Assembly: GCA_938028625.1 (NCBI GenBank) | Contig: CALIZB010000035.1 | Span: 1-62,115 of the forward strand | From: an uncultured Bacteroidia bacterium | GTDB lineage: Bacteria; Bacteroidota; Bacteroidia; JANWVE01 | DNA: 62,115 nt | Reading direction: 5' to 3' | Part shown: piece by piece, positions 630 through 43,567 of the stretch | How positions within the stretch are numbered: the stretch's first letter is position 1 | Layout: every line of letters starts with the position of its first letter | The notes under the pieces: generated by a model | The model's input: only the letters and a program-made list of their open reading frames with translations | What the model was told of the DNA's origin: nothing | Database searches by the model: none | Position numbers and translations under genes: made by a program

Positions 630-731
630 GGGCGTGTCCTTCACTTCGTTCAGGTCGGTGCATTCCGCACTTCGCTAGCGCTTCGGTGCTACGCACAGGG
701 TTAATGCCCTTGCTTCATGCCCCTCACGCAA
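630..731 (-). repeat. Dispersed structured GC-rich intergenic repeat, copy 1 (diverged)
   Basis: Reverse complement reads TTGCGTGAGGGGCATG...CCGACCTGAACGAAGTGAAGGACACGCCC, sharing both ends with the copies at 3931 and 43452. Confidence 0.85.
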
Positions 732-746
732 TTTTATCTTACAATT

Positions 747-1448
747 ATGGAACTATTTTACACTACTGACATAGATTTTCCTTATTTATATCTACAACAT
801 GAAGAAGCTATACATTGTATTAAATCTTTACGAAAAAATATAGGAGATTACATTCACATAACTGACGGATTAGGTAATCACTATTACGGAATAATTACGC
901 AAATAGAAAGAAAAAAGGATATTGTTACCGTACACGCACAAAAACAACAAAATTTTAATAAAAGTCAAAATTTAGGCTTATGTATAGCACCTACTAAAAA
1001 CATAGACAGAATGGAATGGTTGATAGAAAAAGCTGTAGAGTTAGGTGTTTCTCAAATACAATGGATAATTACTGAACGTTCTCAAAGAAAAACCATTCCA
1101 TTAGAACGTATGCAACGCATAGCTATATCGGCAATGAAGCAATCTTTGCAGTATTTTTTACCGAATTTTTATCCTATCATAAACTTTTCAAGTTGGTTAG
1201 AACAACAAAAAATTTTGCAAGGAGTAATTGGATATTGTGGTGAAGATATAGATAAAAAACCTTTGAATACTCTACAAATCACAAATAAACAAAATACATA
1301 TTGGATTTGCATAGGACCCGAAGGGGATTTTACTCAAAATGAAGTAAAACAATCCCTGAACACAGGATTGATACCTGTTTCCATAGGCACACACAGACTG
1401 CGCACCGAAACCGCCGCCTTAACAGCTATATCTTATTTCTATCTATAA
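747..1448 (+). CDS. rsmE: 16S rRNA m3U1498 methyltransferase RsmE
   Basis: Motifs IEKAVELGV, IGPEGDF and RLRTETAA. Start moved to ATG 747 because the ORF-track start lies inside the repeat. Confidence 0.93.
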   Translation: MELFYTTDIDFPYLYLQHEEAIHCIKSLRKNIGDYIHITDGLGNHYYGIITQIERKKDIVTVHAQKQQNFNKSQNLGLCIAPTKNIDRMEWLIEKAVELGVSQIQWIITERSQRKTIPLERMQRIAISAMKQSLQYFLPNFYPIINFSSWLEQQKILQGVIGYCGEDIDKKPLNTLQITNKQNTYWICIGPEGDFTQNEVKQSLNTGLIPVSIGTHRLRTETAALTAISYFYL

Positions 1449-1699
1449 AAAAATTGTGTATTTTCAATCTAAATGAACACTAAACGCTACAAACTTGCCA
1501 ATCATCTCGTAATTCCCTACCGTTTTACTTTATAACTTCCTCTATGCACAATACATCTTTTACCGCAACTATTACAAGCAAATGTAACATAGGTTTGCTT
1601 TTGTAAAGTTTTATCCTGCTGATAATAGCTTAAAATTTGTTCTCGGGCTTTTGCCAAACTTGCGCGGGTGAAGGTAAGAAACCATATTCAGTCAATGGT

Positions 1700-2605
1700 T
1701 TAGCCGAGATTAAAATAATCATTTACTTTTTTGAGTTTTTTCTGCAATTCGCTGTAATATCCGTCTGATGCAGGTACTAACGGAAGACGTACATTTTTCA
1801 AACAAATGCCCATGATTTCTAATGCGGCCTTTACCCCCACAGGATTGCCTTCTGCAAATAAAAAGTCCATACATTCCAATAATCCATAATGGTATTCACG
1901 GGCTTTTTCATAATCTCCTGCCAATGCAAAACGTACTTTTTGGCTTACTTCTCTCGGAAAAATATTGCCTGCCACAGAAATAACGCCTACTGCACCTACA
2001 CTCATAAAAGGTAAAGTTAAACTATCATCACCTGAAACTACTAAAAAATCTTTGGGTTTTTGAGCAACAATGTTCATTACTTGCACTACACTTCCTGCCG
2101 CTTCCTTGACAGCAACAAGGTTTTTATGGTCATTTGCTAATTTGATTATAGTTTCAGAGGTCATGTTAATTCCTGTACGCGGAGGAATGTTATACATGAT
2201 AATTGGCAAATCTGTACTTTTTGCAATGGCAGAATAATGGGCATAAATTCCGTTTTGATTAGGTTTATTGTAATACGGGCAAACCGATAAAATGCCATCT
2301 AATCTGTAATTTTTAGTGTAGTATTCTATTTCTGATATAACTTCTTGCGTATTATTACCCCCTATACCCATTATCACAGGCAATTTACCTTGATTAGCTT
2401 CCAGAACAGTTTCTATAACTGATTTTTTTTCATCTTTGGTTAATGTAGGGCTTTCTCCTGTTGTTCCTATGGGGACGATATATTCTACTCCCCCTTCCAC
2501 TATACGAAAAACCAATCTTTGCAGGGCTTTTGTATCTACCTTATTCTCATTTGTAAAGGGGGTAACTATGGCAACCCCTGTTCCTTTGATATAACTTGTG
2601 TTCAT
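1700..2605 (-). CDS. dapA: 4-hydroxy-tetrahydrodipicolinate synthase
   Basis: Motifs GTTGESPTL, YNIPPRTG, catalytic Lys in AVKEAAG, and NPVGVK. Confidence 0.96.
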   Translation of the reverse strand: MNTSYIKGTGVAIVTPFTNENKVDTKALQRLVFRIVEGGVEYIVPIGTTGESPTLTKDEKKSVIETVLEANQGKLPVIMGIGGNNTQEVISEIEYYTKNYRLDGILSVCPYYNKPNQNGIYAHYSAIAKSTDLPIIMYNIPPRTGINMTSETIIKLANDHKNLVAVKEAAGSVVQVMNIVAQKPKDFLVVSGDDSLTLPFMSVGAVGVISVAGNIFPREVSQKVRFALAGDYEKAREYHYGLLECMDFLFAEGNPVGVKAALEIMGICLKNVRLPLVPASDGYYSELQKKLKKVNDYFNLG

Positions 2606-3129
2606 GGTTTTATTTTTTGTAAATAATGGATAATAGAAAGTAAATTTTCATCAGTGATATGTTCGTACACATTTGGAATAACGAGTTCGTAACAGTCCCA
2701 GTTACTATCATGGATACCTACCCGCATAGTAATGTCAATAGCACAGCCAAGATACTGAGCAGCAACATTATCTTTGTCTGTAAGGTCTATAGATACGTCA
2801 AAATGCTGGTCTATAAAGCCATCAACGGCAGAAGTTTTAGGTATGCCAAGCAGATTGGTATGCGAACCGTCTATACGTGTACGTTCATACGTATACGGAA
2901 GCAAAGAGGTTTCTTTTTTGCTTTTCAAAAACTCTACGGTTTTAACCCGTACAGTATGTTTTTTTAACAGGTCTATAAAACGGGCAATAACAGTGGCTTC
3001 TTCAGCGGCGCGCGGCGAAACAAAGAGTATAAAACTTTTGATATCCTGCCATGCAATACTGGAATGCGCAAAGTGTTTTTTATTGTGCAATCTTCTGAAC
3101 TGAAGTCTTTGAATTATCTTGAAAGGCAT
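2602..3129 (-). CDS. Conserved Bacteroidota protein (DUF6913-like) upstream of dapA
   Basis: NLLGIPK...FIDQHFDVSIDL motif. Overlaps the dapA start by 4 nt, a typical Bacteroidota neighbourhood. Confidence 0.6.
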   Translation of the reverse strand: MPFKIIQRLQFRRLHNKKHFAHSSIAWQDIKSFILFVSPRAAEEATVIARFIDLLKKHTVRVKTVEFLKSKKETSLLPYTYERTRIDGSHTNLLGIPKTSAVDGFIDQHFDVSIDLTDKDNVAAQYLGCAIDITMRVGIHDSNWDCYELVIPNVYEHITDENLLSIIHYLQKIKP

Positions 3130-3209
3130 ACGAATACAAGCAAATTAAAGTAAAAAATATTAAAATTCCATAATTTTTAGGTATTTTTATTGATACAACA
3201 GACGATAAT

Positions 3210-3863
3210 CTATTGAGTGATTGCCCAGTAGACAATGTTTGTTCCCATTTTGAGAGCTTGCTGTCGTACAGGTTCGGGGTCATTGTAAATTTCTTGGTCT
3301 TCCCAGCCATTTCCTAAATCACATTCATAGCTGTAAAAGCATACTAATCTGCCGTCATGAAAAATACCGAAGCCTTGTGGAGGTTTGCCGTCATGTTCAT
3401 GCACTTTGGGCAGTCCTTTTGGAAACGAGAAGGGTTTCTTATAAATCCCAAAATCAAAAGGAAGTTCTACAAAATCATGTTCAGGAAATACTTTTTTCAT
3501 TTCTCTACGAATGTATTTATCTAAACCATAATTGTCGTCAATATGTAAAAATCCTCCTGAAATAAGATAGTTTCTTAAATTCTGAGCTTCTGCATCTGTA
3601 AAAAATACATTTCCATGTCCTGTAAGATGTACCCACGCATACTGAAATAACGCAGGACTGCCTACTTCCACAATATCCTCTTTTTCATGTACTTTAATGA
3701 CAGAATTTTGGTTAATAAACTTAATCAGATTAGGTAAAGAAGTGCGATTACAATACCAGTCACCTCCACCGCCATATTTTAGTTTAGCTATTTTGAATGT
3801 ATTATTCTGACACAAGCCCCATGCTAATCCAAAAAAGAGTATTATGCAAAGTATCTTTTTCAT
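3210..3863 (-). CDS. DUF4159 domain secreted protein
   Basis: Signal peptide. Motifs KYGGGGDWY, LTGHGNV, GGFLHIDDNYG and DLGNGWED. Confidence 0.9.
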   Translation of the reverse strand: MKKILCIILFFGLAWGLCQNNTFKIAKLKYGGGGDWYCNRTSLPNLIKFINQNSVIKVHEKEDIVEVGSPALFQYAWVHLTGHGNVFFTDAEAQNLRNYLISGGFLHIDDNYGLDKYIRREMKKVFPEHDFVELPFDFGIYKKPFSFPKGLPKVHEHDGKPPQGFGIFHDGRLVCFYSYECDLGNGWEDQEIYNDPEPVRQQALKMGTNIVYWAITQ

Positions 3864-3930
3864 GATACAAAGTTAAGAATAATCTGCAAATTCAGTAGCC
3901 GAAATCCTGTAAAAACCGTGTATTATCCAC

Positions 3931-4051
3931 TGCGTGAGGCATGCGAAGGGTATGCGTTAGCATAGTGCCTTGCACCGTAGCAAAGCGTAGCCCGTAGCAC
4001 GCCGACCTTGCACGCATGAGCATTAGCGAAACGCTGTGCAAGGACACGCCC
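3931..4051 (+). repeat. Dispersed structured GC-rich intergenic repeat, copy 2
   Basis: TGCGTGAGGCATGC...GTAGCCCGTAGCACGCCGACCTTGCAC...GTGCAAGGACACGCCC. Its 5' half nearly matches copy 4 and its 3' half nearly matches copy 3. Confidence 0.92.
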
Positions 4052-4073
4052 AAATTAAAACCTAAAAAATATA

Positions 4074-4895
4074 CTATTGAAAAGAATAGATATGCAGATT
4101 ATCAGGATATTGTACAAAAAACAAGTGATTTTGATACATATAAAAAGTATCTACGGCAAAACGATGTACGTTCTGTGCTAAACAGACTTCACACAGTTTT
4201 TTATCCTGTAAAGTATTGTATATCACAAGATAGTTGTTCATGCTAGTTTGTGTAGCATCTTTATTCATACTGTAATAACTCAAAATGTGATTTTCCTGAT
4301 AGTTTAGATATTCAGAATAGTGGAATTTAAGCAATGGGGCAAACGTTCTAAAAAAAGTGAGGTGTTCTTTGTTTTCGGGTTTATCCAATAAAACAGACTG
4401 TGGAAATCGCATTTGTTCAAAGGCATCTAATTCTAAATTTTCAGCTTCTTGAATGATGTGAATAGGGATTTGCTCACCAAATTGCTGAATAATTTTACCT
4501 GAAAAATCTAATTCCACAAACTGCCGAAGCCCTTCCTGTGTGAGATAATGCGCAAGAATACTGAAATTTGTTTTTTTTAGCCATGAAAGCTGGGGCTGTT
4601 CCCATAAAAGCATCCTGCTACGAATATCATACGCATATATGCCGTAGTGTTCAGGAATTTCAGGACTACGATACTGATGTGTGTATATAATACCGTTATG
4701 CACATCTTCTATACCTATTAACCAAGGTTCATGCAGTATCCAGTCTGTTACGGTTTGTTTTTGTGTGGCAAGGTCAATAACATGAAAAGAAGTAGTGTAC
4801 TCTGCTCCGTTACGAACTTCTATCACTGCTAAATGCTGACGGGTATCTACACGGACTTTCCATATATTCCCTTTGAAAGAATAAGAATGCAACAT
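4074..4895 (-). CDS. DUF4905-like conserved protein
   Basis: IWK...IEVR, W-x-IG, PEHYGIYAYD and terminal DTFY pattern recalled for this Bacteroidota/Chlorobi family. Confidence 0.6.
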   Translation of the reverse strand: MLHSYSFKGNIWKVRVDTRQHLAVIEVRNGAEYTTSFHVIDLATQKQTVTDWILHEPWLIGIEDVHNGIIYTHQYRSPEIPEHYGIYAYDIRSRMLLWEQPQLSWLKKTNFSILAHYLTQEGLRQFVELDFSGKIIQQFGEQIPIHIIQEAENLELDAFEQMRFPQSVLLDKPENKEHLTFFRTFAPLLKFHYSEYLNYQENHILSYYSMNKDATQTSMNNYLVIYNTLQDKKLCEVCLAQNVHRFAVDTFYMYQNHLFFVQYPDNLHIYSFQ

Positions 4896-4899
4896 GATT

Positions 4900-6210
4900 T
4901 TACAACAAAGATTTGGCTTTAATAGTTAGATATTGATTGATAGCTTTGGCTGTTAAATTCTCGGGAAGGGTATCCAAGGTTAAGACGTTATTTAATTGTA
5001 GATATTTGAATGCTAATAAACGTTGTTCTAAAATTTGTTCTGCTACACCGAGTTGTAAAGCCTGTTCTCTGGTTTTGGGAACTTCCAGAGTTACTTTGTG
5101 TAGTTCTTTATCGCGTAAAGTAACGCACAGGGGCAGATGTTTGGGAGAAAGGCGTGTAAATTCGCGTATAAGTACATCAGAAGCACGGTTATCAATAATG
5201 TCCGTAATCAGTATAATCAATGCTCTTTTATTTACTTTTTTCTTGATATACTGGAAGGCAAGGGAATAATTAGGTTCAGTCATCTCATACTGAACGTTAT
5301 GTAAAAGTTGAGAAATAGCATGTACTTGGGTGATACCTCTTTTGGGTGGCAGATAAGTTTGTATATTTGCACCAAAAACTAAAAGTCCTATATTGTCTTC
5401 TTTGTTTGCACAAATGTAACTTAACATAAGCGTTGCATTGATAGCATAATCTAAACGTTTCATAAAACCGTCAGAATTGCGCATCATACGTCCTGCATCT
5501 AATACTATAATTACATTCTGATTGCGTTCTATCTGATACTGTGCTACTATGGGTTTACCTTTTCTTGCGGTAGCTTTCCAGTTAATTTTGCGGTATTCGT
5601 CATCTTTGGTATATTCTCTTAGACTTTCAAATTCCCGTCCTTCGCCATATTTGCGGATACTTCGCCTGCCTACCTGTTCTAATTGATTTTTTCGTGCTAA
5701 TAACTGATATTTTTTGAGTTTGAGGTATCCTGGATATACAGAGAAACTATTTTCTAATGAATACTCATAATCTTTCCGAACCAATCCGAGTATGCCCAGA
5801 ATGCGCAGATGGACAGTTTGGTACTCATACTTTCCGCGTTCACGCGGGGTAATAGTATAGGTAAAGGTTTGTACTTCGTTTCCCTGAATACCAAAAGGAA
5901 ATATAGCATCACGAATTTGAAAAAATTCAGGCACATCATCTCCCAGAAAGCCTTTCCAATACCGTTTGCTCTTATTATGTAAAGACAAAATGATTTCATT
6001 TTCATCACCCAAAGAAAGTTTTTGAGCTAGCTCCCTACTGATTTCAAATTTTTCTTTGCCTGGAATAAGGCGATAGTCTATAACCATAAAAATTGCCCAT
6101 ACTAAAATGATAACAAAAGCTACAGCTAATAAAAAACTCCAGAAAAAGCTTAGCCCCATACAGGCTACGGCTATGAGTAAAATTAAAAAGGTTCTGTGCG
6201 TGAACGTCAT
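4900..6210 (-). CDS. DUF58 (MoxR-associated VWA-like) membrane protein
   Basis: EFESLREY...DEYRKINWKATAR and VLDAGRMM. N-terminal TM pair. Start moved to ATG 6210, downstream of a -7 box. Confidence 0.9.
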   Translation of the reverse strand: MTFTHRTFLILLIAVACMGLSFFWSFLLAVAFVIILVWAIFMVIDYRLIPGKEKFEISRELAQKLSLGDENEIILSLHNKSKRYWKGFLGDDVPEFFQIRDAIFPFGIQGNEVQTFTYTITPRERGKYEYQTVHLRILGILGLVRKDYEYSLENSFSVYPGYLKLKKYQLLARKNQLEQVGRRSIRKYGEGREFESLREYTKDDEYRKINWKATARKGKPIVAQYQIERNQNVIIVLDAGRMMRNSDGFMKRLDYAINATLMLSYICANKEDNIGLLVFGANIQTYLPPKRGITQVHAISQLLHNVQYEMTEPNYSLAFQYIKKKVNKRALIILITDIIDNRASDVLIREFTRLSPKHLPLCVTLRDKELHKVTLEVPKTREQALQLGVAEQILEQRLLAFKYLQLNNVLTLDTLPENLTAKAINQYLTIKAKSLL

Positions 6211-6258
6211 AGAAAACAAAAGTAGCAAATTTGAATAAAAAAATTACTCCGATAAAAC

Positions 6259-6288
6259 AAAAAAGTCCTGATTTGCCATCAGAACTTT
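6259..6288 (-). terminator. Probable intrinsic terminator after the UDP-GlcA decarboxylase gene
   Basis: Minus strand AAAGTTCTGAT-GGCAA-ATCAGGACTTTTTT hairpin with U-tract. Confidence 0.6.
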
Positions 6289-6294
6289 GAGATA

Positions 6295-7236
6295 TTATTT
6301 TACCTTATTTTTGAAGTACTCGTATGTCAATTTTAGTCCTTCTTGTCGGGATATTTTAGGCGACCAGCCGAGTACAGACTGTGCTTTGGAAATATCTGGT
6401 TTTCGCACTTTGGGGTCATCTTGCGGTAGAGGTTTGAATACAATTTTACTTGTAGTACCTGTAAGTGCTTGTATTTCTTTGGCAAAATCCAATAAAGAAA
6501 TTTCGTCAGGGTTGCCGATATTTACAGGTTCTACCTCGTTACTCATTAACAATCTAAAAATACCCTCTACAAGGTCGGATACATAGCAAAAGCTACGAGT
6601 TTGCGAACCATCTCCAAAAACAGTAATATCCTCTCCGCGTATCGCTTGTCCCATGAATGCAGGAATAGCTCTGCCGTCATCTAAACGCATACGAGGTCCA
6701 TAGGTGTTAAAAATGCGGATAATACGCGTTTCTACGCCATGATAACGATGATACGCCATAGTCATTGCTTCGGCAAAACGTTTGGCTTCATCATATACGC
6801 CGCGCGTACCTATGGGATTAACGTTGCCCCAGTATTCTTCTTTTTGTGGGTGAACCAGAGGGTCGCCGTACACTTCAGAAGTAGAAGCTAACAACATTCT
6901 TGCTTTTTTTGCTTTAGCTAATCCCAAGATTTTATGTGTTCCTAATGCGCCTACTTTAAGCGTTTGAATGGGTAATTTAAGGTAATCAATAGGGCTTGCG
7001 GGAGAAGCAAAATGGAGAATATAATGTAAATCGCCGTGTATATGCACATAATTGGTTACATCATAGTGTATAAAAGAAAAGTCAGGGTTATCAAGTAAAT
7101 GAACAATGTTGTCCATGTTACCTGTAATTAGGTTATCCATAGCAATAACCTGAAATCCTTCGGCAAGCATACGGTCACAAAGGTGCGAACCTAAAAAGCC
7201 CGCACCTCCTGTGATAAGAACACGTTTTTTACTCAT
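6295..7236 (-). CDS. UDP-glucuronic acid decarboxylase (UXS-like extended SDR)
   Basis: Motifs [28 protein letters not shown] and [10 protein letters not shown]. Confidence 0.92.
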
Positions 7237-7241
7237 GCAAA

Positions 7242-7406
7242 TTATTTAGTGTTTTTATTTTCTTTCAAAACTTCTTGTGCTTTTTCCAAAGGCACCATTA
7301 TTTCTTGAAAAGAGTAGTTACCGTCTTTATTTTTAACGGCTTTTACCACTTTTGCCCAATTTTGTTTTTCACCTGATTTAAAGGTTGCTACTGCTTTCTT
7401 TGCCAT
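7242..7406 (-). CDS. DUF4295 family small protein (ribosomal protein bL38), 54 aa, missing from the ORF track
   Basis: Translated by hand: [54 protein letters not shown]. The ATG overlaps the rpmG stop (TAATG), the canonical position. Confidence 0.88.
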
Positions 7407-7594
7407 TATTTAATCTCCTTATGAATAGTTACACGTTTAAGAATAGGATTGTATTTTTTTAGTTCTAACCGCTCAGGGGTATTTTTACGGTTTTTGGTGG
7501 TAATGTACCGTGAAGTACCAGGCATACCACTTGCTTTATGCTCTGTGCATTCTAAAATAACTTGGATACGAGCTTCTTTACTCTTCTTTGCCAT
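7406..7594 (-). CDS. rpmG: 50S ribosomal protein L33
   Basis: [11 protein letters not shown]...[23 protein letters not shown], the Bacteroidota type. Confidence 0.97.
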
Positions 7595-7616
7595 AACGTT
7601 GCTTCAAATTAGGGCG

Positions 7617-31680: not shown

Positions 31681-34116
31681 ATGTATTCTTGTCGTTGGTT
31701 TTGGATAATTACATGGATTTTCTTATATTTTACACAAGGATTTTGTCAGAAATTTACCTTGTCAGGAAAGATTAGCATAGCAAAAAATGAGATAAAAAAC
31801 AACTCAGAAGTAATAGAACAAGGTTTTGTAGTACTTAAAGGAAGTACTATTCAAACCCAAGCAGATGCTCAGGGAAATTATGTACTTAAAAATATACCCA
31901 AAGGGCGTTATGTAGTAGTCGCTTTTGCATTAGGAAAAAGTATTGAAGAAAAAGAAATATACCTTCAAAAAGACACCGTGCTTAATTTTACTTTACAAAA
32001 TCTTGAAGAGCAGTATAATGCAGTAGTTATTCAGGCAGAACGAGAAAAAACGTTCGGACTACAAAGAATGAAAAGCATAGAAAATTTTGGTATTTATGAA
32101 GGAAAAAAAACCGAAGTTATTCTGCTTGATGATATTTATGCAAATTTATCCACGAATAATCCACGTCAAGTATACGCGCGTATTACAGGATTAAACGTAT
32201 GGGAAAGCGACCAATCAGGGCTACAATTAGGTATAGGCGGAAGGGGATTAAGTCCTAACCGAACCGCAAATTTTAATGTACGTCAGAACGGATACGATAT
32301 TTCTGCTGATGCACTTGGATATCCCGAAGCCTACTATACTCCTCCTACGGAAGCCTTAGAACGCATAGAAATTATACGTGGTGCGGCATCTTTGCAGTAT
32401 GGTACACAATTTGGAGGCATGCTTAATTTTCGGTTCAAATCTCCTGAAACAGAGAAAAAAATACGCTTCACTTCACGACAGTCTACAGGTTCATGGGGAT
32501 TTTTCAGTAGTTTTAATAGTATTTCAGGTACAGTAAAAAAATTCAGCTATTATACCTATTATCAGCTCAGGCGTGCAGACGGCTACAGACCTAATTCTAA
32601 ATTTTATTCTCATAACTTTTTTACCTCACTCAATTATGAAATATCTTCACGCATTTCTATAAATGCAGAGTTTACCAAAATGAATTATCTTGCCCAACAA
32701 CCAGGCGGACTAACAGATAAGGCTTTTCAAAATAATCCGCGTCAATCTTTTCGTGAACGCAACTGGTTTAATATAGACTGGAATCTCGCCGCTGTGAATC
32801 TTACTTACAAAATATCAGAACATACTCAACTCAATATGCGAAATTTTGGTCTACTCGCACACAGAAAAGCCGTAGGAAATTTAGAACGCATCAATGTAGT
32901 GGATTTTGGCAAAGAAAGAACACTTATTGAAGGCGTATTTCAAAATATTGGTAATGAAACAAGATTACTACATGACTACAAAATTAAAAGCCAAAAACAT
33001 GCGTTTTTAGCAGGTATGCGTTTGTATTCTGGTAAAACTACGGCAAGGCAGGGTTTGGGTTCAGCAGGTAAAGATGCCAATTTTACTTATCTTAATCCTC
33101 AAAATTTAGAAGATTCTGACTATGATTTTCCAAGTAAAAACATAGCTTTTTTTACAGAGAACATATTTAACATTACTTCAAAATTCAGCATTACACCAGG
33201 AATACGCTGGGAATATATTCATACACAGGCAAATGGTTACTACAAACAATATGTAAAAGATGGTGCAGGAAATATCCTTGTGGAGAAAAAAATATATGAA
33301 AGTACAGTAAGAATGCGTAGTTTTCTATTGGCAGGAATGGGATTAAGCTACAAGGTTAAACCTATAGCAGAACTGTATGCAAATATATCCCAAAACTATC
33401 GTGCTATCAATTTTTCAGACTTACGAATTAATAATCCCAATTTGCGCATAGACCCAAATATCCGTGATGAGAAAGGATACACAGCAGATTTAGGCATACG
33501 CGGAAGCAAAAACGGCTTTTTTTCGTATGAACTAACTTTATTTTATCTGTATTACAACGGTAAAATTGGACAGGTTTTACGCACTGATACTATTCTTTTT
33601 AATGACTATCGTTTTCGCACTAATGTATCTGATGCTGTAAACAAAGGAATAGAAGCCTTTGCAGAACTGAATATACTACGTCTTTTCAATGTACACTCAT
33701 GGCAGTACAATATATTTACTAACATATCTTGGATTGATGCACGTTATACAGGCACACAAGACAACAGTATCCGAAACAAAAAAGTAGAAATGGTGCCTCC
33801 TATGGTAGTACGTGTAGGTAATACTGTACGATATAAAAAATTAGGGGGAACAATTCAATATGCTTATACCGCAGAACACTTTTCTGATGCTACTAATGCT
33901 ATTCGCACTGCTACTGCTGTGGAAGGCATTATACCTGCATACAGCATTACAGATATTTCTGTATATTATCAGTGGAAATTTTTGCGTATAGAAGCAAGTG
34001 TGAATAATCTATTTAATGTTTCTTACTTTACACGCAGGGCAGAATCGTACCCTGGACCAGGCATTATCCCCGCTGATGGAAGAGCTTTCTACACTACGGT
34101 ACAGGTAGTATTTTAG
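31681..34116 (+). CDS. TonB-dependent receptor (FecA-like)
   Basis: CarboxypepD-like N-terminal domain, plug ERIEIIRGAASLQYG, NNLFN..YF and terminal Phe. Confidence 0.92.
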   Translation: MYSCRWFWIITWIFLYFTQGFCQKFTLSGKISIAKNEIKNNSEVIEQGFVVLKGSTIQTQADAQGNYVLKNIPKGRYVVVAFALGKSIEEKEIYLQKDTVLNFTLQNLEEQYNAVVIQAEREKTFGLQRMKSIENFGIYEGKKTEVILLDDIYANLSTNNPRQVYARITGLNVWESDQSGLQLGIGGRGLSPNRTANFNVRQNGYDISADALGYPEAYYTPPTEALERIEIIRGAASLQYGTQFGGMLNFRFKSPETEKKIRFTSRQSTGSWGFFSSFNSISGTVKKFSYYTYYQLRRADGYRPNSKFYSHNFFTSLNYEISSRISINAEFTKMNYLAQQPGGLTDKAFQNNPRQSFRERNWFNIDWNLAAVNLTYKISEHTQLNMRNFGLLAHRKAVGNLERINVVDFGKERTLIEGVFQNIGNETRLLHDYKIKSQKHAFLAGMRLYSGKTTARQGLGSAGKDANFTYLNPQNLEDSDYDFPSKNIAFFTENIFNITSKFSITPGIRWEYIHTQANGYYKQYVKDGAGNILVEKKIYESTVRMRSFLLAGMGLSYKVKPIAELYANISQNYRAINFSDLRINNPNLRIDPNIRDEKGYTADLGIRGSKNGFFSYELTLFYLYYNGKIGQVLRTDTILFNDYRFRTNVSDAVNKGIEAFAELNILRLFNVHSWQYNIFTNISWIDARYTGTQDNSIRNKKVEMVPPMVVRVGNTVRYKKLGGTIQYAYTAEHFSDATNAIRTATAVEGIIPAYSITDISVYYQWKFLRIEASVNNLFNVSYFTRRAESYPGPGIIPADGRAFYTTVQVVF

Positions 34117-34143
34117 TTTTTTTGGTCATGGTATTTATAGATT

Positions 34144-34273
34144 GTGTCCTTGCACAGCGTTTCGCTTGCACTCATGCGTGCAAGGTCGGCGTGCTACGGG
34201 CTACAAAACATAATGGTGATTGAGTAGCGATGGCGTACCGAAATCACGCACACCCTCCGCATGCCTCACGCAA
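34144..34273 (-). repeat. Dispersed structured GC-rich intergenic repeat, copy 3 (central arm replaced)
   Basis: Reverse complement TTGCGTGAGGCATGCGGAGGG...GTAGCCCGTAGCACGCCGACCTTGCACGCATGAG...AGCGAAACGCTGTGCAAGGACAC. Confidence 0.92.
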
Positions 34274-34304
34274 TCCCTAAGTCCTTGAAAAATAAATATC
34301 AGGG

Positions 34305-35878: not shown

Positions 35879-35904
35879 TTTTGTGCCGTTTTTAATTACC
35901 TTGC

Positions 35905-36840: not shown

Positions 36841-36844
36841 ATAT

Positions 36845-38107
36845 ATGATAGTTACCATTTTAGTTATTTTTATCGTGGGATATGCTTTGATTTCCGTAGA
36901 GCATGCTGTAAGTATCAATAAAACCGCTACGGCGCTCATCATGGCAGGTATATGCTGGATATGCTATAATGTGTATGTAGGAGATATACATGCTGTAATA
37001 CCCAAATTAAGTCATCATTTATCTGATATTGCAGAGATTATGCTCTTTTTAGTAGGGGCTATGACTATCGTAGAACTCATAGACTCTCATAACGGATTTC
37101 AATTTATTGTAGACCAGCTGCACATAAAAAGTAAACGAAAACTCTTATGGGTAGTGGCTTTTATTTCTTTTTTTCTCTCTGCTATTTTGGATAATCTTAC
37201 TTCTTCTATTGTGATGGTGTCTTTACTTCGTAAATTTATTGGTAAAGCGGAAGATAGAAAGTTTTTTGCAGGTATTATTATAATTGCCGCTAATGCAGGA
37301 GGTGCATTTAGCCCCATTGGAGATGTTACAACTACTATGCTTTGGGTAACGCAAAGAATATCTACAACGGAGGTTATTTTTCGTTTATTTCTACCCAGTC
37401 TAACCTGTCTTTTAGTACCTTTAACGTGGTTACATTTCAGGATAAAAGGAGAAATTACTCCACCTGAACAGAATATATTAGAAGAAGAAAAGAAAATAAA
37501 AGGCAGTCTACTGATGCTCATTCTTGGAACAGGTATTTTATTAGCTGTACCTACTTTTAAGACCATTACGCATCTGCCGCCGTATTTAGGTATGTTATTA
37601 GGTTTAGGCTTGATATGGTTAGTAGCCGATGTTATACACAAACACGAAGAACAAGAAGATATACAAAAACTCTCTGCTAATTATGCACTTACTCGTATAG
37701 ATGTACCCAGTATATTATTCTTTTTTGGTATTTTGGCAAGCGTAGCTGTTTTAGAAGAGGTTCATATTTTATCTCAATTTGCAGAAAAACTCAATACTGT
37801 TATTCCCTCTGAAAAGGGAGTTGCTTTGATATTAGGTATAGTTTCGTCCATAGTAGATAACGTGCCTTTGGTAGCCGCATCTATGGGCATGTATTCTATG
37901 CAAACCTACCCTATGGATTCAAGTTTCTGGCATTTGATTGCGTATTGTGCAGGTACAGGAGGAAGCCTTCTTGTTATAGGTTCTGCCGCAGGAGTAACCG
38001 TTATGGGCATGGAAAAAATTACTTTTTCTTGGTACCTCAAAAACATGTCAGGACTAGCGCTAATGGGATATTTAGCAGGTATTTTAGTGTATATTCTCTT
38101 ATTTTAA
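36845..38107 (+). CDS. nhaD: NhaD-type Na+/H+ antiporter
   Basis: LDNLTS, ANAGGAFSPIGDVTT, VDNVPL and AGTGGS..IGSAAG. Confidence 0.9.
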   Translation: MIVTILVIFIVGYALISVEHAVSINKTATALIMAGICWICYNVYVGDIHAVIPKLSHHLSDIAEIMLFLVGAMTIVELIDSHNGFQFIVDQLHIKSKRKLLWVVAFISFFLSAILDNLTSSIVMVSLLRKFIGKAEDRKFFAGIIIIAANAGGAFSPIGDVTTTMLWVTQRISTTEVIFRLFLPSLTCLLVPLTWLHFRIKGEITPPEQNILEEEKKIKGSLLMLILGTGILLAVPTFKTITHLPPYLGMLLGLGLIWLVADVIHKHEEQEDIQKLSANYALTRIDVPSILFFFGILASVAVLEEVHILSQFAEKLNTVIPSEKGVALILGIVSSIVDNVPLVAASMGMYSMQTYPMDSSFWHLIAYCAGTGGSLLVIGSAAGVTVMGMEKITFSWYLKNMSGLALMGYLAGILVYILLF

Positions 38108-38149
38108 TACCATTCGGAAAACTTACTTTAATTTTTTTGTTCCTATAAC

Positions 38150-39586
38150 ATGGATAAAATTAACCTTGTGTGGCTAAAAAGAGATATTCGCACCCAAGAC
38201 CATGAACCGCTTCACCTTGCAGAACAACACAACTTACCTTACCTAATCCTGTTTATTTTTGAACCGCTAATTATTCAATATCCTGATGCCTCTCCGCGCC
38301 ATTTACAGTTTCAATATCACTGCATTAAAGAAATGAATGAAACACTATATTCATTTGGACATAAAGTACATGTTTTTTATGGTGATGCTATACATATTTT
38401 TGAGTTTTTAACCCAAAAATATGAAGTAAAAAACATATTCAGTTATCAGGAAACAGGCTTAAATCACACTTTTGAACGGGATAAAAAGCTAAAATTATTT
38501 TTTCAAAGTAAAGGTATACAATGGCAGGAAATTCAAAAAGCAGGAGTACAAAGAGGTTCTTTGTATGTAAGAGAAAAATGGCAAGAAAATTTTCAAGGCT
38601 ATGTAGATAAACCTGCTATAAACAATACTTTTTCATCAGAAAAAACAATTCTATTAACACATAACCCTTTTGAGTTACCGTTTTATCTTCAAAATAATCT
38701 ACAAAACTATCCCTCACAATATCAGCCTGCGGGAGAAAAATACGCATGGAAGTACTTAACCACTTTTGTAAAGGAAAGAGGCATAAAATACATGCAGAGT
38801 ATATCCAAACCACAGGAAAGCAGATACCACAGTAGCAGACTATCACCGTATCTTGCATGGGGAAGTTTGTCCATAAGGCAAGTGTATCAAACTGTTATTC
38901 AAAGTGAAAATTATGTCAGATACCCAAGAAGTTATGAAGCATTTATCTCGCGTTTATGGTGGCAGAGTTACTTTATCCAAAAATTAGAAAAAAAGCCAAA
39001 CTATGAAACGAACTGCATTCAACCTGCTTTTGAAGATATACCATTCGGTCAAGATGAAGTAAAGTTAAACGCATGGAAAAAAGGTAAAACAGGCATTCCA
39101 CTCATAGATGCGTGTATGAGATGTTTACATTCAACAGGATGGATAAACTTCCGTATGCGTGCTATGCTTGTATCTTTTTTATGCCATTATCTTGAAATAG
39201 ACTGGAAATTAGGCATGTATCATTTAGCACAACTTTTTTTAGATTATGAACCAGGTATACACTATCCCCAGTTTCAGATGCAGGCAGGTGTTTCTGGCAA
39301 TCCTATTATCAGAGCATACAACCCCATCAAACAAAGTAAAGAAAAAGACCCCGATGCTATATTTATCAAAAAATGGCTTCCTGAACTCTCTCTTTTGCCC
39401 AAAGAACTTATTCATGAACCGTGGAAAATCAGTAGCATAGAAGCAAAAATGTATAACTTTTCATTAGAAAAAGATTATTGCAATCCTATCATTATTCCTG
39501 AAAAAGCAGATTTTACCTTGCTTAAAAAACTATGGAAAATAAAAAAACTTATCAAGAGCAATAAACCCGAAATAAAGCAGGAATAA
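38150..39586 (+). CDS. Cryptochrome/DNA photolyase family protein
   Basis: WLKRDIR..D, SRLSPYLAWG, GWINFRMRAM and LFLDYEPGIH. Confidence 0.9.
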   Translation: MDKINLVWLKRDIRTQDHEPLHLAEQHNLPYLILFIFEPLIIQYPDASPRHLQFQYHCIKEMNETLYSFGHKVHVFYGDAIHIFEFLTQKYEVKNIFSYQETGLNHTFERDKKLKLFFQSKGIQWQEIQKAGVQRGSLYVREKWQENFQGYVDKPAINNTFSSEKTILLTHNPFELPFYLQNNLQNYPSQYQPAGEKYAWKYLTTFVKERGIKYMQSISKPQESRYHSSRLSPYLAWGSLSIRQVYQTVIQSENYVRYPRSYEAFISRLWWQSYFIQKLEKKPNYETNCIQPAFEDIPFGQDEVKLNAWKKGKTGIPLIDACMRCLHSTGWINFRMRAMLVSFLCHYLEIDWKLGMYHLAQLFLDYEPGIHYPQFQMQAGVSGNPIIRAYNPIKQSKEKDPDAIFIKKWLPELSLLPKELIHEPWKISSIEAKMYNFSLEKDYCNPIIIPEKADFTLLKKLWKIKKLIKSNKPEIKQE

Positions 39587-39610
39587 ATAAATCTTCTTTA
39601 CCTTTGTGGC

Positions 39611-40402
39611 ATGAGCGTTATTCAAGCCATTATTTTAGCTATTATTGAAGGTATTACGGAGTTTTTACCTATCTCTTCTACGGGACACATGATTATTGCT
39701 TCTTCCTCTATGGGCATAGCAGAACAAGATTTTACTAAAACCTACACCGTAATGATACAGTTTGGAGCTATTTTATCCGTGTTAGTTTTGTATTGGAAAC
39801 GCTTAATTCAAAGTATAGATATTTATTTCAAATTAGCTTATGCATTTATCCCTACGGCTATACTCGGTTTTTTACTCAATGACGTGATAGATAATTTATT
39901 AGAAAGTCCGCTTACAGTAGCTATTACGCTTATTCTAGGGGGAGTTATTCTTATTTTTGTAGACAAATGGTTTAAACAACCCGAAAAAGAACCTGAAACG
40001 TTGAATTTAAATCCTGTTTCAGCTGTAAAAATTGGCTTATTTCAAGCTATTTCAATGATTCCTGGGGTTTCAAGGTCTGCGGCAAGCATTATTGGCGGTA
40101 TGATAGTCGGTTTAACTCGCAAACAAGCCGCTGAATTTTCATTTTTACTCGCCATTCCTACTATGTTCGCCGCCGCAGGATACAAACTGTACAAATATCT
40201 TAAACTCATGAAACAAAATGCCACCTCTCTTTCTGATACAGATTTTATCAATTTAATTGTAGGTAATCTTGTAGCTTTTATCGTAGCCGTGATAGCTATT
40301 AAGGCATTTATTCATTTACTTACAAGATATGGCTTTAAATGGTTTGGTGTGTATAGAATTATTGTAGGCGTTATTATTTTGGCAGTATTACTTTTGAAAT
40401 AA
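39611..40402 (+). CDS. uppP: Undecaprenyl-diphosphatase
   Basis: EGITEFLPISSTGH, PGVSRS and AAEFSF. Confidence 0.96.
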   Translation: MSVIQAIILAIIEGITEFLPISSTGHMIIASSSMGIAEQDFTKTYTVMIQFGAILSVLVLYWKRLIQSIDIYFKLAYAFIPTAILGFLLNDVIDNLLESPLTVAITLILGGVILIFVDKWFKQPEKEPETLNLNPVSAVKIGLFQAISMIPGVSRSAASIIGGMIVGLTRKQAAEFSFLLAIPTMFAAAGYKLYKYLKLMKQNATSLSDTDFINLIVGNLVAFIVAVIAIKAFIHLLTRYGFKWFGVYRIIVGVIILAVLLLK

Positions 40403-40415
40403 GATAAATCTTAAC

Positions 40416-40958
40416 ATGGCTGACGAACTTGAAAAACTCAAATTAGATGCATTAGGGCGACTTTCCATAGAAGAGTTTAAGCAAAGTAATAAGTTTCCCG
40501 CAGTAGTTGTATTAGAAAATGTGCGTTCTGCTATGAACGTAGGCGCTATTTTTCGCACTGCTGATGCTTTTGCCATAGAAAAACTTTACTTATGTGGGTA
40601 TACACCTACGCCCCCGCATAAAGACATCATGCGTACCGCACTCGGTAGTGTAGAAAGTGTAAATTGGGAACATCACGCAGATACACAAACCGTTCTTAAT
40701 GTGCTTAAAAATCAAGGCTATACAATTTGTGGAGTAGAACAAACTAATAAAAGTATAGAGCTACAAAATATCTCTATAATGCCCAAAGTAGCTTTTATTG
40801 TAGGCAATGAAGTTGACGGAGTAAATGAAGAAACTTTATTACAATGTGATGCTATCCTAGAAATTCCGCAGTTTGGGACAAAACATTCTCTAAATGTAAG
40901 TGTAGCTACGAGTATTGTTTTATGGCACTGGCTTTATGTTTCCCAAATCCAAAAATAG
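40416..40958 (+). CDS. SpoU/TrmH-family RNA methyltransferase
   Basis: NVGAIFRTADA, GNEVDG and EIPQFGTKHSLNVS. Confidence 0.92.
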   Translation: MADELEKLKLDALGRLSIEEFKQSNKFPAVVVLENVRSAMNVGAIFRTADAFAIEKLYLCGYTPTPPHKDIMRTALGSVESVNWEHHADTQTVLNVLKNQGYTICGVEQTNKSIELQNISIMPKVAFIVGNEVDGVNEETLLQCDAILEIPQFGTKHSLNVSVATSIVLWHWLYVSQIQK

Positions 40959-42463
40959 GGTTCAGTAATAGGTTTTTGCAAAATATTTTCCCAAAGTGTG
41001 TTACCATATATTGCATACGTGCTTAAATAGCTAAATATGCGTTCCTGCCACTTTCCATAAGGTAAAACGGCATCATACAAATCGGTTATTTTTTGAGTAA
41101 AAATGCTTTCTCTTTTTTGTGTTTCTTTACGAATTTTGGTATAAAAGTGCTTCCATTGCTTTTCTATGCGGGTTACAGTTGCCATAGCGGATTGTTCCAA
41201 ACCTAATTTTTGATTTCGTGCAAAATGAAGTAAAGCAGTATTAAAATGCTCTAACTGCTGTTCTAACTCTGTAAATTCTTTATTTTGAGATACTTGTTTT
41301 TCAAAATATCTTGCTATAAATGCGTTTTTTTGAGTATTAAGCAAAGTAAGCAAGTCTAATTTGTATTTTTGTAAAGCAGAAATTTGTTTTGTAGACAGCT
41401 GAACACCAAAATAACGCGGTACTAATACAGGAAATGGCACTTGAAAGGCTTCAAACGTAGATTTTATCTGTAACCAATACGCAATCTCCGTAGGTCCGCC
41501 GATATATGCTATATTAGGAAGTATAAGCTCTTGGTAAATAGGTCTTAACAAAACATTTGGGCTAATATGCTGCGGTTTATTTGGATTGATAACATGAATA
41601 TCATTATTCCATTTCTCGCGCAGATTATTTTGATAAATGTAAAAAAGATTGACTCTATTAGGATTAGCATACGTTTTATAGCCTGATGCGTGTAATTCAT
41701 CAATAGTTTTTAGAACCGTTTTGTAAGTTACATTTTCTTTGATTTCTTTTTCTGCAATCGGTAAAAATTTAGCTTTTAATTCGGGTACATGTGCATCTAA
41801 AACTAATATGCCAAGATGTCCAAATAGTTTTTGAATAAATAAACGTATGGCTTGGCTTAGTGTAAAATTAGATGTAAAGCATTGAGAGAGAAGTTGATTT
41901 GTATGATTAGCATATAATCCTTTGTCTAATGTATTGAAAAGTATTTCCAACGTATTCTCAATATTATACAAAGGTAAGTTACCTGTAATTCCTTGATAAT
42001 TGGTAGGATAGTGAATTTTCTCTCTGTCTGCGTATAAGGTTTGAATTTCAGCTACATCATGGTCTTCGGAAGCTAACCAGAATATAGGTACAATTTTGTA
42101 CTTATCTGATTGATTTTGCAAGGTGCGTGTATATGCAACCGTTGCCAAAATTTTATATGCAACAAACCAAGGTCCTCCAAAAAGACACAGTTGGTGTCCC
42201 GTAGTAACAGTAAAGGTATTTTCATTCTTTAGAGCAAGTAGATTTTGTTTTTGTTCAGGATACAGAGAAATATCTTGATACTGCTTTGTTAAAACAGTGT
42301 ATAGAGTATTACGGTCTATATTTTTATGCTTTTGCAGTTGTATAAGCGTTTCAATAGATGCCGTAGCATAATGTGCATTGTAGTAAGGTTGTAGCGTTTC
42401 TGAATTTTGTATGTAATCACGAAATAAATTCGGAAGTGCGTTTATTTCACTGAGAGAAATCAT
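40934..42463 (-). CDS. bshC: Bacillithiol biosynthesis cysteine-adding enzyme
   Basis: VTTGHQL, FWLASEDHD, SPNVLLRP.YQE, GGPTEIAYW and QER. Confidence 0.92.
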   Translation of the reverse strand: MISLSEINALPNLFRDYIQNSETLQPYYNAHYATASIETLIQLQKHKNIDRNTLYTVLTKQYQDISLYPEQKQNLLALKNENTFTVTTGHQLCLFGGPWFVAYKILATVAYTRTLQNQSDKYKIVPIFWLASEDHDVAEIQTLYADREKIHYPTNYQGITGNLPLYNIENTLEILFNTLDKGLYANHTNQLLSQCFTSNFTLSQAIRLFIQKLFGHLGILVLDAHVPELKAKFLPIAEKEIKENVTYKTVLKTIDELHASGYKTYANPNRVNLFYIYQNNLREKWNNDIHVINPNKPQHISPNVLLRPIYQELILPNIAYIGGPTEIAYWLQIKSTFEAFQVPFPVLVPRYFGVQLSTKQISALQKYKLDLLTLLNTQKNAFIARYFEKQVSQNKEFTELEQQLEHFNTALLHFARNQKLGLEQSAMATVTRIEKQWKHFYTKIRKETQKRESIFTQKITDLYDAVLPYGKWQERIFSYLSTYAIYGNTLWENILQKPITEPYFWIWET

Positions 42464-42472
42464 ATTTTAATT

Positions 42473-42871
42473 TTAAGGTGTATTTTGTGCATTTTTACTT
42501 TGTTCTATTGTCCATTTCATAAGATATTTGACTTCAAATACCGTAAAAATAAGATATGTAACAAAAAAAGCTACTACAAATTGTACTTTGAAAGGTTTAT
42601 ATTGCCATATACAGATGAGGGTAGCAGTTATACTCAACGCAAACTTAATGAGCATACTACTGATAATCTTATTCATAAATTGATAATGTTGAGTATTCTG
42701 TATTCCTTGGTAGATTATCCATGTAGAGAGTACAGCAATAGTGCCTGAGGTGAGTACAGCAATGCTAGCGACCCATATTCCCACCTGGTCAGCCCATAGA
42801 TAAAATATAGGTAACAAAATAAGTGTAGTAATCAAAATGAGTAAAGACAGGTTTTTAAGGTAATTTTTCAT
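42473..42871 (-). CDS. Four-TM hypothetical membrane protein (AtpI-like topology)
   Basis: Four hydrophobic segments with an FM...K...FF..Y..F..FE pattern. Co-oriented with bshC. Confidence 0.55.
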   Translation of the reverse strand: MKNYLKNLSLLILITTLILLPIFYLWADQVGIWVASIAVLTSGTIAVLSTWIIYQGIQNTQHYQFMNKIISSMLIKFALSITATLICIWQYKPFKVQFVVAFFVTYLIFTVFEVKYLMKWTIEQSKNAQNTP

Positions 42872-42893
42872 ATTTTCGCAAAAATACAGAAAT

Positions 42894-43379
42894 ATGCACA
42901 CACTTTGGGCAGAGATAATAGTTAGTATAGGTTTATTGCTGATAAAACATGATTTTCATGCGTCTATGACAAAAATAGAGTATTCTACTAAAAATCAGTC
43001 TTTGCAGTGTATTATGCATGTATTTACTGATGATTTAGAACTTGCTCTATCTAACTTTCACCAAAGAGAAATAAAATATCAGGAAAATAAAACAGATACC
43101 GAAATTATACCTTACTTGAAAAGTGTTTTTATAGTGAGAACAAACAAAAATAAAATCTTACCAATAGAATACATAGGTTCTGCTCGCAAACCTAATACCG
43201 TGCAACTTTACTTTGAATTACCTTGCTCCAAAAGCGAACTAAAACAACTTTCTATCACGCATAGTCTACTTTTTAATGAATTTAACGACCAAGTAAATAC
43301 TATCAATTTTTATGTACTTGGCGAGAAAAAAAGTTTGGTATTTACTAATTCCGAAGGCACAAAGGTGATAACATTTTGA
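42894..43379 (+). CDS. DUF6702-like periplasmic protein
   Basis: HDFHASMT, FTDDLE and DQVN motifs. Confidence 0.75.
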   Translation: MHTLWAEIIVSIGLLLIKHDFHASMTKIEYSTKNQSLQCIMHVFTDDLELALSNFHQREIKYQENKTDTEIIPYLKSVFIVRTNKNKILPIEYIGSARKPNTVQLYFELPCSKSELKQLSITHSLLFNEFNDQVNTINFYVLGEKKSLVFTNSEGTKVITF

Positions 43380-43451
43380 TAAATGAGTATTTTTTGTCTA
43401 AAATTGAGTAATTAGCTTAACAATAGATTTGAATTTTTTTGAGGGTTAGAG

Positions 43452-43567
43452 TTGCGTGAGGCATGCGGAGGGTATGCGTTAGCATAGTGCGAAGCACCGC
43501 AGCGTGAGCGTAGCCCGTAGCACGCCGACCTGAACCCTGAGCTTGCCGAAGGGTGAAGGACACGCCC
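43452..43567 (+). repeat. Dispersed structured GC-rich intergenic repeat, copy 4
   Basis: TTGCGTGAGGCATGCGGAGGG...GTGCGAAGCAC...CCGACCTGAACCCTGAGCTTGCCGAAGGGTGAAGGACACGCCC. Confidence 0.92.

Follow-up and report, generated by a model that had tools for sequence, protein, structure and literature searches.

Flavo-1 (Rfam RF01705) is a structured sequence family whose public description mentions Spirochaetes and presumes a trans-acting small RNA (sRNA). In the table of its discoverers it is entered as a probable RNA from Bacteroidetes that is neither a switch nor a cis-regulatory element (Weinberg et al. 2010, PMC2864571), and it is counted among the most abundant 'sRNA' families in Rfam (PMC9029176); no function has been assigned to it since 2010. 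The subject of the present text is a family of GC-rich elements, four copies of which lie in a stretch of 62,115 nucleotides (nt) of DNA (contig CALIZB010000035.1, positions 1 to 62,115; hereafter the window) from an uncultured Bacteroidia bacterium (G000; assembly GCA_938028625.1, 2.9 Mb, 170 contigs, 99% complete). This family, which escapes the Rfam model, is a branch of Flavo-1 that has diverged, gained in size and multiplied greatly; it is best explained, with a probability of roughly one half, as a non-autonomous mobile DNA repeat that resembles the repetitive extragenic palindromic (REP) sequences and is selected as a folded, purine-rich single DNA strand.

The REP and REPIN repeats of Proteobacteria are extragenic, lie mostly downstream of genes in convergent and co-directional spacers, form inverted doublets and larger arrays, vary strongly in abundance between relatives and have a single-strand fold as their working form, and some REP classes are described as having no dedicated transposase (PMC3733652); all of these traits are shared by the elements described here. 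The two differ in build, REPs being simple palindromes of 20-40 nt with a tetranucleotide tag, whereas the units here are 100-150 nt long, contain a three-way and a four-way junction and carry swappable arms; a REP-associated tyrosine transposase (RAYT) was not found in this genus by a Y1_Tnp search. Integron attC sites recombine as a folded single strand with imperfect pairing, their structure being conserved and their length and sequence variable, and they stand directly behind the open reading frame (ORF) of the cassette with the folding strand complementary to the coding strand. The elements share with attC sites the folded strand, the conserved structure of variable length and sequence, and the position behind an ORF, but their ends show no attC-type paired core sites, and they stand one by one between housekeeping genes and not in arrays of cassettes. 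Mini-hairpins of the GCGNAGC and GNNA types that fold in one DNA strand only are also found in the phage G4 origin and in RSF1010 ssiA, where they are read by a protein in their folded form (PMC13037366); unlike the present elements, these are single-copy replication signals of phages and plasmids and not dispersed chromosomal repeats.

A profile built from 40 copies defined by regular expressions (regex) finds 58 copies in G000 (nhmmer), 56 of them with E <1e-14, and recovers all four window copies at the positions and on the strands given in an earlier reading made from the letters of the window (the sequence-only reading). An exact pattern for the 3′ half of the element has 49 matches in G000, 1605 in the congener G001 (2.9 Mb) and 790 in the congener G002 (3.0 Mb), against 0 for the reversed pattern that served as control, confirming a genuine multi-copy family. 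The units have eight helices within 96-140 nt, and a unit of ~125-150 bp runs in the order TT, P1 (GCGTG), A, arm 1, GA, arm 2, A, P1′ (CACGC), CC and an A-rich tail. P1 (GCGUG/CACGC) closes a three-way junction. Its linkers A and GA never vary (41/41 copies), and the last linker is a single base, A in 37 copies and G in the other 4. Arm 1 opens with P2 (GGC-A-UGC/GCA-C-GCC, with a conserved A.C mismatch), continues through a 3x3 loop in which GNA faces GNA, and then through P3, which leads to a four-way junction of P4, P5 and P6 with zero unpaired bases. Arm 2 opens with CCU...AGG and exists in a short, a medium and a long version, which are interchangeable; the medium one has tandem G.A/A.G. 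A 10-nt insert may be present in P5, and because all six combinations of P5 insert and arm 2 version occur, the modules assort independently. The 5′ TT is weakly conserved (position -1 is T in 38/43 copies); after GCCC the tail has A at ~80% at +4 to +9, and further A residues come after a position that is T or A.

Since the arms are not homologous throughout the family, RNAalifold gave a poor consensus when all 58 copies were simply aligned with MAFFT, and the structure was therefore derived from single-sequence folds and then tested by pair counts in a MAFFT alignment of 41 copies. Pairing is kept in 99.0% of 1227 cells and 17/30 pairs have changed on both sides, a result equalled by 0/500 shuffles; slid controls pair in 19-47% of cells. 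P1 is invariant within G000. Among 50 copies from nine other genomes, in an alignment fitted to a covariance model of the G000 copies only (R1, n=41), 95.5% of cells are paired, 24/30 pairs are double-changed, 3/5 of the P1 pairs among them, and again 0/500 shuffles do as well. Covariation thus strongly backs the closing helix, the three-way and four-way junctions and the swappable arms, and it upholds the earlier observation that base-pairing is kept while the arm contents vary.

The nhmmer bounds of the four window copies are 627-732(-), 3930-4054(+), 34139-34274(-) and 43451-43570(+). As had been noted from the letters, the elements are far richer in G+C (~58-65%) than the window around them (28-39%). 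A full-length alignment of the four has 49 invariant columns. It displays both arms, the junction CCGACCT and the GCGTG/CACGC outer stem described by the sequence-only reading, and it bears out the mosaic make-up, in which copy 2 has its arm 1 in common with copy 4 and its arm 2 in common with copy 3. The ends it called fixed are seen in the same alignment, except that copy 3 has no final GCCC; the bounds it gave hold for the core, the real units extending ~10-20 nt further to take in the 5′ TT and the 3′ tail. The copies, and the parts of copy 4, are laid out as follows.

615..732, minus strand: copy 1; core 627-732, with an A-rich tail that reaches the stop (612-614) of a plus-strand hexapeptide-transferase gene; short arm 2 and the GGGGCAUG variant of P2
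3930..4071, plus strand: copy 2; core 3930-4054 and A-rich tail; long arm 2; tail 20 nt from the stop (4074-4076) of a minus-strand DUF4905 gene
34139..34274, minus strand: copy 3; arm 1 with a nested second repeat (module B), arm 2 of the long version, deviant 3′ end without GCCC; tail 23 nt from the stop (34114-34116) of a plus-strand 815-aa gene
34216..34247, minus strand: module B inside arm 1 of copy 3
43448..43579, plus strand: copy 4; medium arm 2, the commonest architecture of the family; tail ~20-29 nt from the stop (43599-43601) of a minus-strand 146-aa gene
43454..43458, plus strand: 5′ strand of P1 of copy 4 (GCGTG), paired with 43561-43565
43460..43526, plus strand: arm 1 of copy 4; P2 with the conserved A.C mismatch, GNA/GNA internal loop, P3 and four-way junction (P4, P5, P6); counterpart of the hairpin modelled by Rfam Flavo-1
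43527..43559, plus strand: junction GA and arm 2 of copy 4; CCT, tandem G.A/A.G, inner hairpin, AGG
43561..43579, plus strand: 3′ strand of P1 of copy 4 (CACGC), CC and the conserved A-rich tail

The two strands of the element are unequal in their motifs. Forward-strand and reverse-strand counts over the 58 copies are 72 and 0 for GCGNAGC, 72 and 2 for GCGNNAGC, 259 and 12 for C-GNA-G, and 146 and 14 for C-GNNA-G; the one-strand bias that the sequence-only reading had seen for GCGAAGC/GCGTAGC is real. The elements, at an estimated ~0.3% of the genome, hold ~13-15% of all genomic occurrences of these motifs. Mismatches within stems are G.T in 24 cases and A.C in 6 (two alignments), and the one-strand motifs together with this excess of G.T over A.C identify the forward strand as the folding strand. 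GCGNAGC and GCGNNAGC are extraordinarily stable DNA mini-hairpins (PMC13037366). Four-base G..A loops in the elements are GNYA in 39 cases and GNRA in 14, an excess that is unlike the GNRA tetraloops of RNA and fits DNA mini-hairpins of these two kinds. The question of whether the working form is a DNA element or a structured RNA, for which the sequence-only reading had offered both a REP-like repeat and an RNA, is no more than narrowed towards DNA by motifs, loops and placement.

Placement was counted with ORFs of >=100 aa as stand-ins for genes. In G000 the gene on the tail side is convergent, its stop facing the tail, at 50/55 copies, and the stop is often 3-35 nt away; all four window copies obey this rule, their A-rich 3′ ends lying 13-29 nt from the stop of an opposite-strand gene (4/4). 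The sequence-only reading had placed the elements just downstream of a stop codon, which is correct, although the strand that it wrote out is antisense to the gene concerned. Among copies with genes on both sides (n=52), spacers are convergent in 23 cases, co-directional in 27 and divergent in 2, and of the co-directional copies 24 have an antisense and 3 a sense folding strand (two-sided binomial p ~5e-5, hand calculation). The bias could come from selection against copies whose hyper-stable purine strand falls on a transcribed gene's non-template strand, from a reverse strand that is largely stop-free and has an outward-facing ATG, or from a strand-specific insertion step. Local GC skew, used as a guide to replication direction, does not explain it, its sign on the folding strand being split 24 vs 25; skew is uninformative in this draft assembly because long ORFs split 89 vs 90. 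Neither orientation has the form of an intrinsic terminator: in the sense transcript a T-run precedes the structure, and on the other strand an A-run follows it. On some phage contigs (IMG/VR L320, L321, L323, L324, L325) the forward strand lies ~50 nt upstream of a same-strand ORF of 86-87 aa that belongs to no known family, an orientation opposite to the bacterial rule.

The REP/REPIN/MITE-like behaviour proposed by the sequence-only reading (MITE, miniature inverted-repeat transposable element) is borne out by the gap in copy number between congeners, by filled and empty sites, by inverted doublets and composites and by the position at gene 3′ ends. At least 25 of ~100 listed G002 matches to the 3′-half pattern share an identical 29-nt 3′ half, and orthologous genes of the congeners are only 66-85% identical. 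A 207-kb sample of G002 holds 62 profile matches. When empty orthologous sites were looked for, four insertions in G002 were paired with empty sites in G000, the flanks mapping 52-103 nt apart and, in one case, 3 nt apart. In G001, head-to-head composites of ~640 bp were found at 10/10 loci chosen for paired BLAST matches; each has one inverted copy, usually enlarged by a further GC-rich hairpin, and one forward copy, on either side of ~330 bp of AT-rich hairpin repeats, and both tails face outward. These composites stand at L021-L030 (for example L021:415-1021), the spacer being made of about five imperfect hairpin repeats; the spacer repeat forms no repeat family in G000. Composite-like pairing recurs along the listed G001 contigs, and G002 has doublets of two inverted 3′ halves.

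Two of the G002 insertions fall at the beginnings of genes for secreted proteins. The element at the C137 site (L135:14-230 on G002 C63, compared with G000 C137:4070) occupies, in frame, the first codons of a signal-peptide gene, its reverse strand being open throughout when translated. The element at the C4 site (L350:6584-6937 on G002 C6, compared with G000 C4:4480-4560) lies ~33 nt upstream of the original start of a lipoprotein gene, and its reverse strand is likewise open (read by eye). In both, the element contributes an ATG, ~13 nt within its end, that shares the reading frame of the gene and gives a new N-terminus beginning MPHA, and in one of the two the position of the original ATG is altered; elements can thus give neighbouring genes new start codons. 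In the window, the longest ORF of an RsmE-like gene (717-1448, plus strand) begins at an ATG within copy 1 (717-732), its Pfam match starting only at residue 83, and the same 12-13 nt overlap of ORF and element is seen at four other G000 copies. Start-codon calls beside these elements need care.

The repeats also break short-read assemblies. In three DNA runs Logan contigs are interrupted where elements stand, no joint spanning an empty site was seen, and both Logan contigs and G002 contigs end in elements. The idea that the elements mark breakpoints of synteny between G002 and G000 was rejected: gene order is broken at 20/23 junctions with an element and at 49/54 without one. Gene order between the two genomes is scrambled in general, 8/77 adjacent BLAST blocks being colinear (207 kb, L345-L364).

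With regard to distribution, BLAST among 40 relatives finds the family in the two congeners only. The R1 model, searched in 151 genomes of the class from 101 genera, finds it in 21/151 genomes and 14/101 genera, other families included. A scan with the 3′-half pattern (one genome per species) returns at least 133 loci from many different Bacteroidota, and among the matches listed there are also loci in Gemmatimonadota (Longimicrobiaceae, Gemmatimonadales) and in metagenome-assembled genomes of Spirochaetota. R1 confirms full-length elements in 46 matches over the 60 loci tested, and the 5′ core is present though the pattern did not require it. The core pattern is also found on 15 IMG/VR viral contigs. 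Across carriers 5′-(U)UGCGUGAGGGAU, AGCCCGACC and GGRCACGCCCAAA are nearly fixed, ~33 core nt are near-invariant over three phyla, and the arms range from a few to >100 nt. P1 covaries, reading GCGCC/GGCGC in G075 and GCGUU/AACGC or GCAUG/CAUGC in Pedobacter.

Comparison to Rfam, which had been suggested as a check, yields no direct match and a kinship through intermediates. The window has no match at the gathering score in Rfam release 15 and copy 4 none at E up to 10, and RF01705 has 0 matches genome-wide in G000 and G001 (E up to 0.001); it has 71 in G120, 40 in a Pedobacter and 75 in a Flavobacterium. Its model comprises the 5′ strand of P1 and arm 1, 76 positions ending at CCCGA, without the closing helix, arm 2 or the tail. 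Among the distant loci found here, 7/17 match RF01705 at 24-36.5 bits, under the gathering score of 42 bits; a locus common to R1 and RF01705 (G153:C87 near 155.9 kb) reaches 43.5 bits, above the cut-off, and several further shared loci score 35-38 bits. Pedobacter loci that score 69-73 bits on RF01705 have the complete three-way architecture, and their P1 covaries. In Flavobacterium the subtype met most often is reduced, with a different short closing pair and the same CC and A/T-rich tail. Seed loci of Flavo-1 itself have GCGUGAGGGAU and AGCCCGACC on the two sides of a hairpin with GNA/GNA loops (PMC2864571, supplementary file 3). In at least 10 rows of the authors' alignment GCGUGAGGGAU lies inside the motif, and AGCCCGACC, arm 2 and GGRCACGCCCAAA extend from there into the 3′ flank, which is unaligned. 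The base of the Flavo-1 hairpin is GGGAU...AGCCCGA; the main G000 subtype has GGCAUGC...GCACGCCGA instead, with GNA/GNA loops present, and minority G000 copies (e.g. C101:5392) have GGGAUAUG...AUAGCCCGACC at the hairpin base. The loci shared by R1 and RF01705, together with the core at the seed loci, establish homology to Flavo-1 members via intermediates, and the label 'uncharacterised' given to the family by the sequence-only reading does not stand.

Both Flavo-1 and the present family have the same core, many copies per genome and no known function. The window subfamily differs in its changed P2 (GGCAUGC/GCACGCC) and in an enlarged arm 1 with a four-way junction, and, whereas Flavo-1 is filed as 'Gene; sRNA', a mobile DNA repeat is what the present evidence favours. 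The motif as published covers no more than a part of a larger, closed structure, and whole lineages carry versions that are invisible to the Rfam model. Searches of the literature for a repeat or MITE in Bacteroidetes, for the mini-hairpins, for an RNA motif of three phyla and for the core strings returned no description besides Flavo-1, although the PDF supplements of PMC2864571 may mention repetitiveness; matches to the core strings, those recognised, were unrelated (16S rRNA, primers). Within the literature searched, the closed three-way architecture, the one-strand DNA-type hairpin signature and REP-like dynamics without a Y1 transposase are absent. REP-type behaviour with a range of 49-1605 copies within one genus changes how such matches should be annotated.

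In the explanation favoured here, the folded strand would consist of mini-hairpins of the GNA and GNNA kinds together with sheared G.A pairs, copies would be spread in trans and exchange parts module by module, and they would persist where they are least harmful, just behind stops and mainly in convergent or co-directional spacers; in G000 the folding strand lies on the template strand of the upstream gene. DNA as the working form, enzymatic spread and the cause of the orientation bias are parts that we infer. Several results weigh against this explanation. Computed stabilities do not separate the strands, DNA z-scores being -0.8 to -3.0 forward and -0.7 to -3.1 reverse and mean RNA energies -45.4 vs -43.1 kcal/mol; similar energies may be expected, as nearest-neighbour models give such motifs no credit. 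Direct repeats of >=5 nt occur in the flanks of 16/56 copies vs ~18.5 in shuffled flanks, with no excess of target-site duplications, and the four filled/empty pairs have no single clean boundary or target, short duplications being blurred by A/T-run junctions. The four G000 copies that were compared all sit at sites occupied in congeners by other subtypes, which fits old, retained or functional elements, hot spots, or conversion between copies. G000 copies match their nearest neighbours at a median identity of 0.84 and never above 0.92 (12 flank bases included), a divergence that gives no sign of recent activity in that genome. The orientation bias is weaker in the nine other genomes (49 copies), where the tail faces a stop in 35/49, co-directional spacers split 14 vs 9, and 20 spacers are convergent and 4 divergent; a bias relative to genes would be equally expected of a cis-acting RNA. 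Genes between inverted pairs in G000 are housekeeping genes only, with no autonomous copy, and neither Y1_Tnp (PF01797) nor RVT_1 (PF00078) was found in G000, G001 or G002. The model is testable in that the folded purine-rich DNA strand should be the substrate, and it points to a mobilisation system not yet identified in a major environmental phylum.

A structured RNA, either a trans-acting sRNA from the purine-rich strand or a cis element of mRNA 3′ ends, with the copies as paralogous RNA genes or modules of untranslated regions, would account for the strong covariation, for the ~33 core nt kept in three phyla, for the adjacency to stop codons and the gene-tied orientation, and for the forward strand preceding a same-strand 86-87-aa ORF in some phage contigs. 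It was as a probable RNA that the discoverers listed Flavo-1 (PMC2864571), and a Leptospira preprint places Flavo-1 among unannotated transcribed regions (10.1101/2023.03.29.534852). This reading is nevertheless rather unlikely. In G000 the strand with the G.U and G.A pairs and purine loops is antisense to the preceding gene at 50/55 copies, so that a co-transcribed RNA would be the poorer-folding complement. The 5′ flank of the G000 copies is not conserved beyond the weak TT, and the -7 box of Bacteroidetes is not enriched upstream of the forward strand (7/57 vs 11% in random windows). GNYA loops outnumber GNRA loops, and 790 and 1605 copies in genomes of 3.0 and 2.9 Mb, with inverted doublets, are unexpected of sRNA genes. 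In the transcriptome of F. psychrophilum, Flavo-1 matches are reported in sense or antisense of transcribed regions, many lying outside them, with no consistent strand or expression (PMC9723704). An element of selfish origin may instead have been domesticated as a boundary of transcription units, as proposed for enterobacterial REP/BIME sequences, acting for example as a barrier to 3′ exonucleases, as a pause or Rho-entry site in the C-rich sense RNA, or as a site for a nucleoid or topology protein. REPs share both the placement and the proposed roles (PMC3733652), and the preponderance of convergent over divergent spacers (23 vs 2 in G000, 20 vs 4 elsewhere), the 4/4 compared G000 sites that are occupied in congeners despite a general loss of synteny, and the inverted pairs every 2-3 kb in the listed G001 contigs, about the spacing of transcription units, all agree with such a role. 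Against it, neither strand has intrinsic-terminator form, and one G002 copy lies inside an operon junction and is read through in frame, where a terminator would be harmful. Since G000 copes with 58 copies and G001 has ~1600, the element is not generally required. A boundary role is improbable.

A classical REP/RAYT or IS200/IS605-derived system driven by a Y1 HUH transposase would explain the one-strand fold, the lack of detectable target duplication and the REP-like placement and doublets, and in G083 the sole element match lies 31 nt behind a Y1_Tnp gene. That gene has different hairpins of its own upstream, and Y1_Tnp is unmatched in G000, G001, G002 and G075, the highest-copy genomes. Across the class Y1_Tnp is carried by 115/151 genomes (a tally that includes G094) and is not associated with the element, as 17/21 genomes with it and 98/130 without it carry the gene. 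The Y1 genes of G120, G126, G152, G153 and G154 are not flanked by elements (0/4 loci at E up to 0.01; one weak match in 10 loci). The RAYT/TnpA driver suggested by the sequence-only reading is thus contradicted, and for this genus such a system is largely refuted and highly improbable; the companion claim, that the enzyme is encoded outside the window, agrees with there being no candidate enzyme within it. A MITE of a DDE transposon is not supported, only the 5-bp P1 being inverted at the ends and flank repeats of >=5 nt being at the shuffled level, though duplications within A/T runs may exist. Nor is a retroelement repeat like short interspersed nuclear elements, PF00078 being unmatched in G000, G001, G002 and G126. 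The mobilising enzyme of this genus would, from the Pfam searches, be neither a Y1 HUH transposase nor a reverse transcriptase. The 26 ORFs neighbouring the element in phages contain no informative Pfam family, and a multi-copy gene beside one G001 element, tried as a transposase, is a TPR-CHAT paralogue.

A wider and more tentative proposal, which is possible although the odds lean against it, extends the mobile-repeat explanation to Flavo-1 as a whole. Flavo-1 would then be not an sRNA gene but one arm of an unrecognised 'super-REP' class of mobile elements that fold as three-way junctions in single-stranded DNA, share the ~33-nt near-invariant core in Bacteroidota, Gemmatimonadota, Spirochaetota and their phages, and spread without a Y1 HUH transposase or reverse transcriptase; such a spread would imply a new enzyme or a new use of a host enzyme. 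The elements are estimated to make up as much as ~7% of a genome (1605 copies, 2.9 Mb).

The genes around the window copies are ordinary (hexapeptide transferase, RsmE, DapA, DUF4159, DUF4905 and others). A second small structured repeat, module B, has a closing stem of the GGTCAT/ATGACC type around a variable hairpin and conserved internal-loop strands (..TTTCGGTAC.. and ..CTACTCAAT..). It has 25 full regex matches in G000 and 36-43 matches to its 3′ motif, with sites at 34216-34247(-) of the window and at C118:22597, C22:3538, C158:8343, C159:14137 and elsewhere in G000, and it matches no Rfam family at E up to 1. Module B occurs alone, just upstream of some copies of the main family, or nested in arm 1 (the subfamily of copy 3). 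It is also found just behind the stop codons of a multi-copy TPR-CHAT (caspase-like) family of 740-750 aa with conserved 3′ ends (G000 C110:1688-3940, C3:59056-61278 and ~10 more contigs), several paralogues of which lie at contig ends. An AT-rich motif of the G001 composites seemed enriched in G000 (88 matches) but reflects only how often Lys-Gln-Gly-Lys is encoded there. The 22-nt inner hairpin of the medium arm 2 (..CTGAGCTTGCCGAAGG..) stands alone at 100% identity in G019, which belongs to another family (C4:2504-2525 and C102:41571-41591), and also adjoins module B (G000 C3 near 61.3 kb), as if it were a further independent mini-module.

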